Shown here: in pieces, positions 43,186 through 58,905 of the stretch
Layout of the letters: each line of letters begins with the position of its first letter
Position numbering within the stretch: position 1 is the stretch's first letter
Assembly: GCF_003991155.1 (NCBI RefSeq)
Contig: NZ_CP031293.1
DNA: 64,000 nucleotides
Strand: one strand, 5' to 3'
Origin: Escherichia coli
GTDB taxonomy: Bacteria > Pseudomonadota > Gammaproteobacteria > Enterobacterales > Enterobacteriaceae
Notes under the pieces: generated by a model
Databases searched by the model: none
What the model saw: the letters and a program-made list of their open reading frames with translations, nothing else
Told to the model about the DNA's origin: nothing
Translations under genes and position numbers: made by a program

Positions 43186-43987
43186 GACTCCTTGCTCATC
43201 GCATGAAGACTCCGAGAGTGAACCCCGTTAGAAAGGGTCACACGCATGCCCCAATACAAAATTATTTGCTCGCCTCTATCGTTGCCATTTCATCAAAAGA
43301 GGAAAAGACAATGATAAAAAAGTTACAAATATGTTAATGAATAAACCAAATTGATCCCGTAATTATATTACGCCGCAAAATCCTTACAATAAACAGGTTT
43401 TTATTGAGCAAATTTGCATTTTTCGACAGTGATCAATTTATAGCGAAATTGTCACGATCTCACCAATTTGATCTACGACAATTTATCGTGTTTTGCAGAT
43501 TTTTTTCAAGAATTAAAAATTGATTTATATCAAAACCAACCAAATATGTTAATTATGTATAAACCATAGATCATTGGTGATTTTATTGTTAATTTATTGT
43601 GAAATATTTATGCAACACAATTATTACAATGAAAAGGTATAGATAAAAAACCAGTGTTTTATTTAACAGAACCGCCTTATCCACTTTTTATAATACCAAT
43701 TGATTAGATTAGCCAATTTGTTGCTATTTTACATAACATATTTTTATCAAAGTTAATTGATTGTTGCCTTTATGAGCACCGGCCGTAAGCCCGTTATGTT
43801 ATTGTTTCATTAGTAATAATCACTTAAATGTATCGATGAAACAGGTATGACTTAGCGGGAGTGATTGTTTCTGAGTGAACAGAAACCACTTTCGCCTGAT
43901 AAATGAAAAATGAGCGATTTTTGCAAGTTAGTTTTTCTATAGCCGAGTACGCTCAGCGCCTCGCTTGATTACAATGAGGTTGCTGCT
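43186..43987. promoter_or_regulatory. Long AT-rich cydA upstream region / island junction
   Basis: About 800 bp with no ORF of 60 aa or more, visibly AT-rich; the cydAB promoters (FNR/ArcA-regulated in K-12) are expected here but individual sites were not resolved. Confidence 0.4.
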
Positions 43988-44932
43988 ATGAGTCCTGATA
44001 ATATCGGTTCGGCTGTCAATCGCTTCTCAGGTTGGCCATCTAATGATCCTCTAAAAACAGATAACGAATCAATGACATCACCCGTGACTGTGCAGGTAAT
44101 AAAGATGATTGCCGCCATCCTTGACCCATATCGGATAGTCGTTGGAATCGATACACTTTATACAACGCAGCGCGAAACATTTACCTCAGAGAGTCAACAG
44201 CTCATTGAATCAGCATTGCAAACACTTCATGTGATAAATTTAAATAACCTGGAAACAAATCTCGATGAGGACGGTCACTATCTGGCTTTTGGATATAACG
44301 TTGACACTCCTGACAGAATAACCGTTTCTGCTTATAATGAAAAAAAGCCTGGCTGCTATGGCCAATGTCTTTTAATACAGGATGACGAAACAGACTTATT
44401 TAACCTGATAAAAGTTAAAATTTTTGAAGCCAGGCATAATTATGTCGCTCAATTGATGAGCGATCCGGAATTTATGTTCAAATTTAGTTATAGCGCTCAA
44501 CAAAATAGATTAGAACCTCATCTTCTGGTTCCCACTTATTTCCCTCTAAAAACAAACGAACCGGTTACGCAAGAGGATGTACTGTTACTTTATCGTTTCT
44601 TTAAAATGGATGGTGATTTTAATATATTAACATCAGATGAATACATGAGTATCATGACACCTCTGATGAAGTGTGAGCGCAGCATCCACGACCACAACAG
44701 GTATGTGACGGGCAAAGATACCCTTCTTCTGGACTATCCTCCTTCTGGTAACCAGATATATTTCCATATTTTTCCTGACGAATCAGCAACACTAGTCCTT
44801 TATTTTTCAAACAATGACATTGAATGTTTCGTCTTTGAAAGAGATATTCCGAGCCAGTATCGCTTTTTCAAAATGTTTACCAATCTGGCACTGGTTATTG
44901 ATCAGTTAACCGATGCCAATCAAATACTTTAA
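43988..44932 (+). CDS. Hypothetical protein (314 aa), AT-rich, no recognised family
   Basis: ATG with gagg RBS about 9 nt upstream; contains internal YRFFKM repeat; low-GC codon usage. Confidence 0.6.
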   Translation: MSPDNIGSAVNRFSGWPSNDPLKTDNESMTSPVTVQVIKMIAAILDPYRIVVGIDTLYTTQRETFTSESQQLIESALQTLHVINLNNLETNLDEDGHYLAFGYNVDTPDRITVSAYNEKKPGCYGQCLLIQDDETDLFNLIKVKIFEARHNYVAQLMSDPEFMFKFSYSAQQNRLEPHLLVPTYFPLKTNEPVTQEDVLLLYRFFKMDGDFNILTSDEYMSIMTPLMKCERSIHDHNRYVTGKDTLLLDYPPSGNQIYFHIFPDESATLVLYFSNNDIECFVFERDIPSQYRFFKMFTNLALVIDQLTDANQIL

Positions 44933-45012
44933 TTTTTATATATTCCCTGTGGCAAATATTGCTAAACAATGCCCGGGGATTAATTTTTATTACTCACGGA
45001 AAGATTTAAATA

Positions 45013-45435
45013 ATGATCCCATCTCAAATCTCTTTCAACACCCTTCCTGTCAATGCAACATACGCTTCAGAGACAACAGTTGACACACAAAAATTCTCTG
45101 ACATCCTCTACTCAGCGGGGTGTTCCCTAAAGGATCTGGCTTATCTGAGCAGATGTCTGGCATCAATACATCCGACTATCGCCAAAAACATTTATGAAAC
45201 AGAAAATCTCAGCGATCAAAAATTACTACATATTGATTGCCGTAGTACAAATGAAATCAAGATAAATATCTTTTTTGGTCAACAACGAGAAGGATTAATT
45301 GAAATTAATTCTGACACTGTCATTTTTTCGATATTGTCTTCATTAATTGACTCCGCCATTTCTAAATTTCAACACCAAATCCCCGTTAACGGTTCAGTTA
45401 ATCGTGAACTATTGTATGAGGATTATACTGATTAA
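45013..45435 (+). CDS. Hypothetical protein (140 aa), AT-rich, no recognised family
   Basis: ATG start; Ser/Thr/Asn-rich N-terminus, acidic C-terminus; 80 bp downstream of previous ORF. Confidence 0.55.
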   Translation: MIPSQISFNTLPVNATYASETTVDTQKFSDILYSAGCSLKDLAYLSRCLASIHPTIAKNIYETENLSDQKLLHIDCRSTNEIKINIFFGQQREGLIEINSDTVIFSILSSLIDSAISKFQHQIPVNGSVNRELLYEDYTD

Positions 45436-52212: not shown

Positions 52213-52372
52213 AAATCCGAATACTTTTAGCCAACTGACATCCCGTCACTTATTGCAGTTCAACACTTCAGCTATTTGTAAGGTTGTAATAGCAGGTAGA
52301 TGCCTGAATCTCTATTCAGGCATCTACTTCTCCTGATTCTGATTTATCGCCGTGCACCTGATGGAGGAAAAA

Positions 52373-55422: not shown

Positions 55423-56025
55423 ATGGAAGCGCGAATTTCAACTGAACGGCATGTGCAGCGCCAGCAGAAATTGAAGGAACAGGTCGATACGCGCGTCGCG
55501 GCGGCGATAGAGAAAAAAGGGATTTTGATTGTTTTCACCGGCAACGGCAAAGGGAAATCCACTGCCGCGTTTGGTACTGTGACGCGCGCGGTGGGTCATG
55601 GCAAAACGGTGGGGGTTGCGCAGTACATCAAGGGGCAATGGGACAACGGCGAATACAACCTTCTCCAACCGCTGGGGGTTGAGTTTCATATTATGGGAAC
55701 CGGTTTTACCTGGGAGACACAGAACCGGCAAGCGGATATCGACGCGGCGAAAGAGGTCTGGTCGGAAAGCAAACGGATGCTGGCTGACAAGCGTTACGAC
55801 TTAGTGGTGCTTGATGAGCTGACCTATATGCTGGCTTACCATTATCTGGACACCGAAGAAGTGATCGCTTCTCTGCAAAACCGCCCGGCACAACAAAGTG
55901 TCATTGTCACCGGACGCGGTTGCCACAGTCAGATATTAAAAATGGCGGATACGGTCAGCGAAATCCGCCCCGTCAAACATGCTTTTGATAACGGCATTCA
56001 GGCGCAGCCGGGTATCGACTGGTAA
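55423..56025 (+). CDS. Cob(I)alamin adenosyltransferase (BtuR/CobA/CobO family)
   Basis: 200 aa; P-loop GNGKGKST; 9 nt downstream of the hydratase. Confidence 0.85.
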   Translation: MEARISTERHVQRQQKLKEQVDTRVAAAIEKKGILIVFTGNGKGKSTAAFGTVTRAVGHGKTVGVAQYIKGQWDNGEYNLLQPLGVEFHIMGTGFTWETQNRQADIDAAKEVWSESKRMLADKRYDLVVLDELTYMLAYHYLDTEEVIASLQNRPAQQSVIVTGRGCHSQILKMADTVSEIRPVKHAFDNGIQAQPGIDW

Positions 56026-56058
56026 TAACTGCGCCTGGCATCCCGCCAGGCGCAGGTT

Positions 56059-56964
56059 TTACATCTCCTGCGGTACGACCGATTTCGCCAGCAACCATTC
56101 ACGAAATTGCTGCAAGTGCGGTGAGTCAGACTTCTCTTCCTGCCACGTCATAATAAAACGATTACCGGTACGAATAGGCACATCACAGGGAATCACCATA
56201 TCGCCACTATCCAAATCATGTTGAATAGCGAACCGTGGTAACAGCGCCACGCCGAGATTAGAGCGCACGGCGGCAATCAGCATTGAAAGCAAATCGAAAC
56301 GTGGTCCGTTATTGACCAGCGGACTGCTAACGCCAGATAAAGCAAACCACTCTTCCCAGCCAGTAATACGGGTGCTTTGATGCAGAAGTGGTAACTCAGT
56401 AAGCAGTTCTGCCACTGACAGTTTTTGATCGGACATTGCAAGCAAACTGCCGCTGCATACCGGCAAAATCTCCTCATCAAAGAGATATTCTACTTCCGCC
56501 CAGGGCGCGCAAAAATTTTCGCGCATAATGACAGCATCGTACTCCCGATTAAGAAAATCGCCGTTATTAGCTAAAGAATGAATATTAACAATAATATCGG
56601 GATGTAACTTTGTGAATTCATGTAAATTTGGGATTAACCAGTGGGTACTAAAAGTAGGATTAACGGCAAGTTCAATAACCTGAACCGTAGGCTGCCAGGT
56701 CATAATGGTATTGGTATCGCGTTCCAGCTTATTTAATGTTTCTTTTACTATCCCCAGGTAATACTTCCCTGCATCATTAAGAAAAATGCGTTTTTTAGAG
56801 TGTGAAAATAACGGAGTACGTAAAAATTCCTCCAGCGCACTTACTTGTCTGAATACTGCACTTTGGGTTAACGCTAACTCCTCTGCCGCTCTGGTATAAC
56901 TTTCATGACGTGCGACGACCTCAAAAGTCACCAGCAGTTCCGTTTTAGGTATTTTTCCTCGCAT
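56059..56964 (-). CDS. LysR-family transcriptional regulator
   Basis: 301 aa; N-terminal HTH FEVVARHESYTRAAEELALTQSAVFRQVSALE. Confidence 0.85.
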   Translation of the reverse strand: MRGKIPKTELLVTFEVVARHESYTRAAEELALTQSAVFRQVSALEEFLRTPLFSHSKKRIFLNDAGKYYLGIVKETLNKLERDTNTIMTWQPTVQVIELAVNPTFSTHWLIPNLHEFTKLHPDIIVNIHSLANNGDFLNREYDAVIMRENFCAPWAEVEYLFDEEILPVCSGSLLAMSDQKLSVAELLTELPLLHQSTRITGWEEWFALSGVSSPLVNNGPRFDLLSMLIAAVRSNLGVALLPRFAIQHDLDSGDMVIPCDVPIRTGNRFIMTWQEEKSDSPHLQQFREWLLAKSVVPQEM

Positions 56965-57002
56965 AATGCCTTCCCTTAAAAATAGTTGAAACTATCAAAA
57001 AA

Positions 57003-57026
57003 CCATTACTTATTGCTAAGTAATGG
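57003..57026. promoter_or_regulatory. Perfect inverted repeat, candidate operator upstream of LysR gene
   Basis: ccattacttattgctaagtaatgg (10-bp arms, 4-bp spacer) 40 bp upstream of LysR start; contains T-N11-A type LysR motif. Confidence 0.4.
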
Positions 57027-57234
57027 CAACCAAAGCAGCAATCAATATTTTATAAAAATCATGTTCGATATTTATAACCTGGTAAGCCTGGCGTGACAAT
57101 TGTCTCAATCAGACAATAATAATCCGAAAAGCAAAACGCCCTTCGGATTATTATGATTCAAGTTAAGTGAAGATTATTAAATTGATAGCAATTATCATAT
57201 CTATGGATATTATGACAAACAATCAACAAAAATT

Positions 57235-58905
57235 TTATTTTTGATTTATAGCATATCCTTCTAAGAATTTTTGCGAAGCTGCAATATCTGGGGTAAAGAC
57301 CCGATCCTGGTCGACAAACGGCACGACTTTTCTGTATTCGGTAAACATTGCTTTGGTGGATTTCCCTAATGCCAGTTGTGGATCGGCCTGCAACCGTAAA
57401 TCGAGAGCCTGTGCGGAATGCATCAGTTCAATGCCATAAATCACGTTCAGATTATCGACAACCTGTTTCAATCTTCTGGCCGCGTGGTCATTATTGGCAC
57501 CGGTATCTTCTATACCTCCGGCAACCGGTTGAATATCGAAAGAAACCGGGTTAGCGAGATCGACATTTTCCGCATGCAGCGCAACAAACGGGATATGTAA
57601 TGAACCGAAGCCATGACCTTTATTACCTGCTGCCGACAGGAAGCGTGACAAACCGGTAAAGTGATCATCTTCAAGATGCAGCGAGCGGCGCATACTGTTA
57701 TGTGAAACATGCACTAACGCCACGGTCAGACGCTGGGTGGCAAGCGCAACCGGTAACGATTCGAAATTCGCCGTCGGGAAGATCCCACCGCTGATTGCCC
57801 CATCTTTAACAAAATATTGCGCGACCTGACTGGAGTCCTGATACGCTTTGTCTGCATTCAGCACGGTTGCCGGGTTGTCATCGGAACTGTTGATCTGCAC
57901 GGTAATGGTATCTTCAGCATCGCGCAACGCGCGCATTGCCTCAGAAATGGTATACACCGTCGTTCTGAACGATAACGGATCCTGCAATGCACGTTTGTCA
58001 TGCTTATGCCATAAATAAGAACCACTTAACGCATCGCGAATCTCTTTAGCGGAATCAGCCAACTGCGGGAAAGGACGCACGGCGATCGACTGCGGCAGTA
58101 CCGGCGCGACATTGCCATTCAACGCTTCCAGACTCATAGCGAAAACCACCGGGCTGACATTCAGCAACTGACGTGCCGAACGAACAGCTTCGATAGCGTA
58201 GGCTGTCCCGACGCTGTTGTTCGATAAAATCGCCAGCATATCTTTACCCTGCGGTACCAGTGGCTTAAGTCCCACTTTCGCCAGCGCGTCACCACCGCTC
58301 ATTTGCACGCCATTTACTCGGGCTTTCCATTCCCCCATCATCACCAGACCAACGTGCGAAGCGAGCATAATATCCGCTGCGCCGATACTTCCCCGCACCG
58401 GAATTAACGGTGTAACGCCGCGATTAATAAATTCGGCATACAACTCGGCAATATAAGGCTGTGCGCCGGTTTGCCCATGCAGCATGGTATTTAAACGTAA
58501 TACCATTGAAAGGCGTGCCAGATAATCCGGTAACATCGGACCAACGCCCGCAGAATGGGCGCGCAGCGCGGCAGCATTAAATTTTTTCGACGCGTCAATC
58601 ACCTCAGGCGTTAAATTTCCTTTGGCATCAAATATGGGCTGATCTTTATTTAGCCCCACGCCCACGGTTAAGCCATAAACAGGCGTACCTGAATGCGCGG
58701 CAGTCATCACCAGATCATAACTTTTTTCCATGCGCTCCATGGCGTTCGACGCGATTTTGACGCCGTTATCACCTAATGCAATTGACCAGGCCTGGTCAAT
58801 GGAAAGATGTTCGCCATCCAGCGTAATGGTTGATTTCGCCATCGCAATGGAGCAAACGCTCCAGAGCACAACGGTGACAGTGACTCTTCGTATCAATCCT
58901 TTCAT
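57235..58905 (-). CDS. Histidine/aromatic ammonia-lyase family homolog with predicted signal peptide and disrupted MIO (Ala-Ser-Gly) motif
   Basis: 556 aa; aligns with HAL throughout (e.g. GEWKARVNG.., LSNNSVGTAYA) but has GSIGAADIMLASH where HAL has GSVGASGDLAPLAH; N-terminus MKGLIRRVTVTVVLWSVCSIAMA-KS is Sec-signal-like; aagga RBS 6 nt upstream. Confidence 0.8.
   Translation of the reverse strand: MKGLIRRVTVTVVLWSVCSIAMAKSTITLDGEHLSIDQAWSIALGDNGVKIASNAMERMEKSYDLVMTAAHSGTPVYGLTVGVGLNKDQPIFDAKGNLTPEVIDASKKFNAAALRAHSAGVGPMLPDYLARLSMVLRLNTMLHGQTGAQPYIAELYAEFINRGVTPLIPVRGSIGAADIMLASHVGLVMMGEWKARVNGVQMSGGDALAKVGLKPLVPQGKDMLAILSNNSVGTAYAIEAVRSARQLLNVSPVVFAMSLEALNGNVAPVLPQSIAVRPFPQLADSAKEIRDALSGSYLWHKHDKRALQDPLSFRTTVYTISEAMRALRDAEDTITVQINSSDDNPATVLNADKAYQDSSQVAQYFVKDGAISGGIFPTANFESLPVALATQRLTVALVHVSHNSMRRSLHLEDDHFTGLSRFLSAAGNKGHGFGSLHIPFVALHAENVDLANPVSFDIQPVAGGIEDTGANNDHAARRLKQVVDNLNVIYGIELMHSAQALDLRLQADPQLALGKSTKAMFTEYRKVVPFVDQDRVFTPDIAASQKFLEGYAINQK

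Follow-up and report, generated by a model that had tools for sequence, protein, structure and literature searches.

A perfect inverted repeat between a LysR-type regulator gene and a hut-like operon of Escherichia coli as a candidate intrinsic terminator or attenuator hairpin

What is the role of a perfect inverted repeat that stands just before the start codon of a regulator gene: is it a site at which a protein binds the DNA, or does it work as a hairpin in the RNA? The question arises at positions 57003-57026 of the window (the whole 64-kb stretch of E. coli DNA analyzed here), which read CCATTACTTA-TTGC-TAAGTAATGG, with 10-nt arms that are fully complementary around a 4-nt spacer. The initial annotation had described a perfect 10-bp palindrome with a 4-bp spacer, about 40 bp from a LysR start in a 270-bp AT-rich gap, and had proposed it as a plausible operator. 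The description proved accurate: the arrangement is 10+4+10, the start codon is 38 nt away and the gap measures 270 bp with 29.6% G+C. The proposed function, in contrast, was not supported, as set out below. We refer to the repeat as IR1 and list it together with the other features of the locus in Table 1.

Anatomy of the repeat and its genomic setting

Both genes flanking IR1 lie on the minus strand and are thus co-directional and not divergent, a point that was absent from the initial annotation. Within the gap, therefore, one transcription unit ends and another begins. A hut-like operon (hutU, permease, hutD, hutI, hutG and HAL-like gene, in this order) precedes the regulator gene on the same strand. 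The regulator gene itself is the last gene of an accessory methylaspartate island (glutamate mutase, methylaspartate ammonia-lyase, AtuA-like, DUF4387, symporter, FumD and CobO) and is convergent with cobO. About one fifth of the complete E. coli genomes contain the accessory island, that is, the hut-like genes and the methylaspartate pathway. In sequence, the window agrees at 100% identity with strain FDAARGOS_497. The enzymes of the methylaspartate cluster are oxygen-sensitive and B12-dependent, and the regulator of the island was only listed as a putative LysR-type regulator by Kronen and Berg (PMC4682846); a literature search with the locus tags of the regulator found no mention of it.

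Several observations concern the neighbouring genes. The HAL-like gene occupies the place of hutH in a hut cluster that has no hutC, and scores 298 bits against a hutH cut-off of 524 bits. The N-terminus of its protein resembles a signal peptide (MKGLIRRVTVTVVLWSVCSIAMA), and the closest relatives outside Escherichia are found in Sutterella and Turicimonas (57% identity). An intact 3' part of the gene is present in about 144 of 5426 complete E. coli genomes. Past the window end, the intergenic region between hutU and RtcB contains two perfect repeats, TATAGAAAC-G-GTTTCTATA (L001 17243-17261) and TAGTGAATAT-N13-ATATTCACTA (L001 17296-17328), both of which are candidate operators of the hut-like operon. 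On the other side of the island, a perfect match to the FNR consensus (TTGATTTATATCAA, 43520-43533) is located upstream of a putative cydA ORF, taken as cydA by its size and position. Between this putative cydA and the methylaspartate operon there are two ORFs (43988-45435), which encode 314 and 140 aa and whose coding sequence is AT-rich.

The IR1 palindrome is real and above chance. When we shuffled the gap preserving dinucleotides, a perfect inverted repeat with arms of 10 nt or more and a loop of 3-8 nt was present in only 32 of 5000 shuffled sequences. Across the 64-kb window we counted five distinct perfect repeats of this kind (arms of at least 10 nt, loop 3-8 nt), compared to 0.54 expected, and those other than IR1 are mostly terminator-like. 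The longest perfect repeat in the window is GTAGATGCCTGAAT-CTCT-ATTCAGGCATCTAC with 14-nt arms (52296-52327), which is located inside the methylaspartate operon between the DUF4387 and symporter genes. IR1 itself occurs a single time in the window, even if three mismatches are allowed, and its segment is found at a median of one place per genome in E. coli; a mobile or repeated element was rejected as its identity. An Rfam scan of positions 56000-58000 at E <= 1 returned chance matches only (mir-374 and MicX), far under the gathering scores.

Read as minus-strand RNA, IR1 has the sequence GCCAUUACUUA-GCAA-UAAGUAAUGGU, followed by UUUUUGAUAG, and folds into an 11-bp hairpin with a GNRA-type loop. 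The predicted folding energy is -13.3 kcal/mol (z = -3.56), and 0 of 200 shuffled sequences were equally stable. Only on the minus strand is there an eleventh pair (G-U), a loop of the GNRA type and a U-run. A terminator scan called IR1 on this strand, counting 11 pairs around a 4-nt loop and taking TTTTTGATAG as the tail, and the tail score (TransTermHP-style) is -5.24. Only two terminator-like sites with 11 pairs were observed in a scan of 20 kb, namely IR1 and a site at 56029-56055 between the convergent cobO and LysR genes. The stem of IR1 falls short of being G+C-rich: three of the 11 pairs are G-C, two of them at the stem foot beside the U-run. The hairpin begins 208 nt past the stop codon of the last hut-like gene. 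Downstream of the HAL-like homologues of Sutterella, Turicimonas and Serratia quinivorans we likewise found, judging by eye, a terminator-like hairpin with a T-run.

Table 1. Features of the locus discussed in the text, with positions in the window
Feature	Position	Strand	Remark
GcvA-subfamily LysR-type regulator	56059..56964	minus	putative regulator of methylaspartate (glutamate fermentation) cluster
U-run (UUUUUU)	56997..57002	minus	directly 3' of IR1 hairpin, then GATAG
IR1	57002..57027 (perfect arms 57003-57012 and 57017-57026)	minus	RNA fold, terminator scan
Core TACTTAT-TG-CTAAGTA	57007..57022		13/14 match to TACYYMT-NN-AKRRGTA (7-2-7)
TAAAAT box, candidate -10 element	57047..57052	minus	83-88 nt upstream of LysR ATG
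IR3	57100..57116	minus	small hairpin adjoining IR2; plus strand TTGTCT-caatc-AGACAA
IR2	57116..57154 (arms 57116-57128 and 57142-57154)	minus	3' untranslated region of HAL-like gene
Best sigma-70-like match in gap, TTGTCA-16-GATAAT, 10/12	57191..57218	minus	consensus match only
HAL/PAL/TAL-family ammonia-lyase	57235..58905	minus	last gene of hut-like operon

Taken together, IR1 most likely exerts its effect at the level of RNA and not by binding a protein. Our preferred reading, which we hold tentatively and at close to an even chance, is that it may be an intrinsic terminator or attenuator, namely an AT-rich hairpin that is limited to certain lineages and formed on the strand that carries both neighbouring genes. 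RNA polymerase would release the transcript at the hairpin and the UUUUUU in a Rho-independent manner, and transcripts coming from the hut-like operon or from a start within the gap would mostly end at about 57001-56997, 32 nt before the LysR start codon. A stop at IR1 would insulate the regulator gene from transcription upstream and hold its expression low. The anatomy of the hairpin, its strand asymmetry and its pattern among alleles are observed; termination, its efficiency and the position of the LysR promoter we infer. Like the intrinsic terminators of E. coli, IR1 forms a stable tetraloop hairpin on the transcribed strand, whose stem foot has two G-C pairs and is immediately followed by six U, and it is located between two co-directional transcription units. 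It differs from them in being AT-rich, with three G-C pairs out of 11 being atypical for E. coli, in lying so near the next start codon and probably downstream of the promoter of that gene, and in a full strength that is not conserved, even in a diverged allele with the upstream operon.

Variation of IR1 among alleles

For comparison we defined eight alleles of the locus. Allele A is that of the window and of every hut-positive strain that we sampled in the E. coli collection; allele T is a recombinant with the proximal part as in A; allele W is that of E. whittamii; allele B is the O157:H7 type, which has lost the hut operon except for a remnant of the 3' end of the HAL-like gene; alleles D, E and F are more diverged loci, whose regulator is 88-89% identical, and D retains the HAL-like gene and hutG. 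These seven can be aligned and diverge by up to about 19% in mean column identity. The eighth, allele C, lies outside the alignment and is missing about 47 nt including the hairpin. A clean boundary of a hut-module insertion beside IR1 was considered and rejected, allele C being a diverged homologue of the gap from which these nucleotides are missing. The locus is a rearrangement hotspot (L002 6461-6573; L004 6184-6646). In O157-type strains about 140 nt of the HAL-like 3' end remain after deletion of the hut operon, and in allele C 8.65 kb are replaced by 463 bp, which include what looks like an ERIC-type repeat.

The 5' end of the regulator gene was found in 1125 of 5426 complete E. coli genomes. 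In about 163 genomes IR1 is perfect, in about 815 it is degraded or weakened and in about 145 it is absent; the perfect form was present in every hut-positive genome of our sample from the E. coli collection. The predicted energy is the same in alleles A and T, and decreases in magnitude to -9.0 kcal/mol in W and to -6.2 kcal/mol in B (z = -0.7). For the corresponding segment of D, E and F we obtained about -3.3 kcal/mol with a minimum-energy fold that differs from the IR1 hairpin, D being hut-positive. A stem core of 7-8 bp nevertheless stays paired throughout the seven Escherichia alleles, none of which shows a change in TTTTTGAT, the sequence that follows the stem. Two independent one-sided changes in the stem result in a U-G wobble on the minus strand, while one shared A-to-C change results in a mismatch. 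The loop varies among the seven alleles in sequence and, by 1 nt, in length. Since a hairpin loop tolerates a change in arm spacing and a dimeric DNA-binding protein usually does not, an RNA hairpin suits this pattern better than a dimeric operator. The element is restricted to some lineages and probably dispensable.

The same pattern of alleles bears on the question whether IR1 has been selected at all. It may be a quasi-palindrome of an AT-rich spacer without selected function, which was perfected in one E. coli lineage, e.g. by template-switch correction, and drifts elsewhere; we regard this as unlikely, though a minor chance remains with it. It accords with the perfect form being limited to one haplotype, with other alleles differing at about the neutral rate of the gap, and with the genomes in which IR1 is absent or has marginal folding energy. 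Furthermore, all five stem differences between A and E/F raise the complementarity in A, as one template switch would. The identity of the gap among hut-positive strains was rejected as a sign of selection because the differences cluster in recombination tracts, so that this identity reflects mosaic recombination and not demonstrable constraint. However, an 11-bp hairpin followed by U6 on the transcribed strand should act physically whether selected or not, and the stem core and the U-run persist across the seven alleles. The terminator or attenuator reading has to face the same data from the other side: in O157-type strains and E. whittamii the arm changes break pairs without compensation at about the neutral gap rate, and the hairpin is nearly gone in D, though D keeps the operon. 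The U-run is kept even without the hairpin, from which it follows that hairpin and U-run may not have evolved as one unit.

IR1 as a possible protein-binding site

The operator proposed in the initial annotation would be that of the adjacent LysR-type regulator, bound for autoregulation. IR1 is dyad-symmetric and lies near the 5' end of a LysR-family gene, and autoregulation through sites in the own promoter is common in LysR-type regulators (PMC11495319). The boxes of these regulators are, however, T-N11-A dyads of 13-15 bp that are centred on a base (PMC11495319), whereas the axis of IR1 falls between 57014 and 57015 and its symmetric T/A pairs are only even-spaced; a repeat centred between two bases cannot contain a symmetric T-N11-A box. 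It further differs from them by its 10-bp arms, by being a lone site and by the lack of a divergent target gene, and its half-site spacing varies by 1 bp among alleles. In addition, site and regulator do not occur together. E. coli, E. whittamii, Salmonella and Citrobacter share residues 1-40 of the regulator, recognition helix included, without any difference, yet the palindrome was absent upstream of the orthologous regulators (57-86% identity) of Salmonella, Citrobacter, Enterobacter, a metagenomic enterobacterium, Yersinia and Trabulsiella. Within E. coli, an identical protein (WP_001214260.1) occurs in one strain with IR1 and in one strain without. A search of the whole window and of L001, the methylaspartate-operon and hutU promoters included, found no related site when up to three mismatches were allowed. 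With the anatomy of a terminator added to these points, we consider an operator of the adjacent regulator very improbable.

A different protein is suggested by the 7-2-7 core listed in Table 1. Here IR1 would be a DNA site of the nitrate/nitrite response regulators NarL/NarP over or just downstream of the LysR promoter, and phospho-NarL/NarP would repress the regulator gene, so that glutamate fermentation is switched off when nitrate is available. The consensus and the architecture of such sites are documented (PMC4886647, PMC7419079, PMC4549865, PMC2718512), and frdA is repressed by NarL through a 7-2-7 site near its transcription start (PMC4886647, PMC7419079, PMC4549865). Like the sites at frdA, nirB, nrfA, napF, yeaR and ogt, IR1 contains two inverted TACYYMT heptamers with a 2-bp spacer, both terminal TAC/GTA triplets being intact, at a position compatible with repression. 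A match of this quality was observed in only 0.15-0.5% of shuffles of the 250-nt upstream region; it is retained with one mismatch in alleles A, W, B and T, where the substitutions of the O157 type and of E. whittamii fall only at N, M and K positions or outside the 16-bp core. It would also make sense for nitrate to repress a regulator of fermentation, and the methylaspartate cluster encodes enzymes that are oxygen-sensitive (PMC4682846).

On the other hand, this match was spotted post hoc, after comparison with many consensus sequences, and matches with at most one mismatch occur in 14 of 100 shuffled windows (0.16 expected per window). Alleles D, E and F have lost the site: they show three to four mismatches, GTC in place of GTA and, through a 1-nt deletion, another half-site spacing. 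Neither allele C nor any of the other genera examined has it. It also differs from known NarL/NarP sites in having no FNR partner, a search of the gap for one giving chance-level matches only, and in belonging to a locus that is missing in E. coli K-12, the strain in which the NarL regulon was defined. No 7-2-7-like site was found at the methylaspartate or hutU promoters, and a NarL/NarP site does not account for the U-run and the GNRA loop. Comparison of IR1 with the consensus sequences of HutC, CRP, RcsB and IHF gave no match. A NarL/NarP site seems rather unlikely to us, about on a level with the absence of selected function. It does not exclude the RNA hairpin, with which it is compatible.

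Other structures of the gap and the meaning of IR1

The initial annotation had noted a second inverted repeat at about 57115-57154 after the stop codon of the HAL-like gene, possibly a terminator or a stabilizing hairpin. This repeat (IR2) is real and longer than described: its arms of 13 nt are 100% complementary, lie 13 nt apart and start 80 nt after the HAL-like stop codon, and through G-U pairs the minus-strand RNA reaches 16-17 pairs. Together with the adjoining IR3 it is predicted to fold on the minus strand with -12 to -27 kcal/mol in all seven alleles, 4-11 kcal/mol better than on the plus strand. Six pairs of IR2 and IR3 are changed on one side only and are still paired by wobble, and IR3 shows one double change from G-C to A-U between alleles; the covariation controls are weak and one is uninformative, as the 3' arms hardly vary. 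The fold in every allele and the pairs kept by wobble support the proposed hairpin role at the level of sequence. IR2 is without a clean U-run, and the tail after its upper stem is U-rich; because of the missing clean U-run, a strong terminator is a poorer fit than a weak one or than a hairpin that serves in stabilization or processing. In allele D, IR2 with IR3 is probably the only 3' structure of the operon. There IR1 would be too weak to terminate, and the conserved IR2 and IR3 presumably mark the operon 3' end.

Next to transcripts from the operon, candidate promoters in the gap have to be regarded. A TAAAAT(AT) box is located at a nearly equal distance (82-88 nt) from the ATG of the regulator gene in E. 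coli A and W, Salmonella, Citrobacter, Enterobacter and Yersinia, with a chance of about 1-3% per sequence, and is not kept in alleles D, E and F; a LysR promoter candidate conserved across all alleles was not found. If TAAAAT is the -10 element, IR1 would lie at about +15 to +38 of the LysR leader. This box, shared by five genera and upstream of IR1, speaks against a simple terminator, because the own transcript of the regulator may have to read through IR1. Directly after the HAL-like stop codon, the best sigma-70-like match could start an independent transcript that ends at IR1. IR1 may therefore attenuate the regulator transcript and the read-through from upstream, or it may end a separate RNA of about 190 nt. 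An anti-terminator pairing of 57037-57047 with 57007-57017 was set aside, as its 5' strand overlaps the predicted transcription start. We likewise set aside an Ile-rich ORF of eleven codons at about 57180-57215, for which no Shine-Dalgarno sequence was seen on reading the sequence.

Further pairings were observed in the same region. RNAalifold predicted a long-range minus-strand helix between 57182-57189 and 56991-56998 (GCUAUCAA with UUGAUAGU), which would enclose IR2, IR3 and IR1; one of its pairs changes from C-G to U-A between alleles, and the sequence is very AT-rich. A small palindrome at 57197-57210 follows the HAL-like stop codon and falls within the spacer of the promoter-like match. 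Its minus-strand sequence is ATATC-CATA-GATAT in A and ACATT-CATA-AATGT in D, E and F, which corresponds to two compensatory double changes.

Small RNAs derived from a 3' untranslated region can share the terminator of the mRNA, an example being SdhX from the neighbouring sucD gene. The gap resembles such RNAs in having the hairpins IR2 and IR3, an AU-rich stretch, a terminator-like hairpin with U-run and a promoter-like match after the stop codon. It differs from them in that it has no match to an Rfam family and no conserved seed-like segment was identified in it. It is conceivable, but we think improbable, more so than the NarL/NarP site by itself, that the gap encodes a structured minus-strand RNA of about 190 nt (IR2, IR3, a possible closing helix and the IR1 terminator), either as a small RNA derived from the 3' untranslated region or as an attenuating LysR leader, and that the DNA of IR1 serves as a NarL/NarP site in addition. 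If this combination were true, nitrate would control the regulator that belongs to the methylaspartate island in pathogenic E. coli.

Concerning the biology of the island, the operator of the putative regulator is to be sought away from the IR1 palindrome. The NarL/NarP match is the sole lead that may tie the island to anaerobic respiratory control. If IR1 is a terminator, it would simply explain how an accessory regulator is insulated from the operon upstream. Such an element would be unsurprising, of a familiar kind and here unannotated, and recognizing it would help the annotation of the accessory island.
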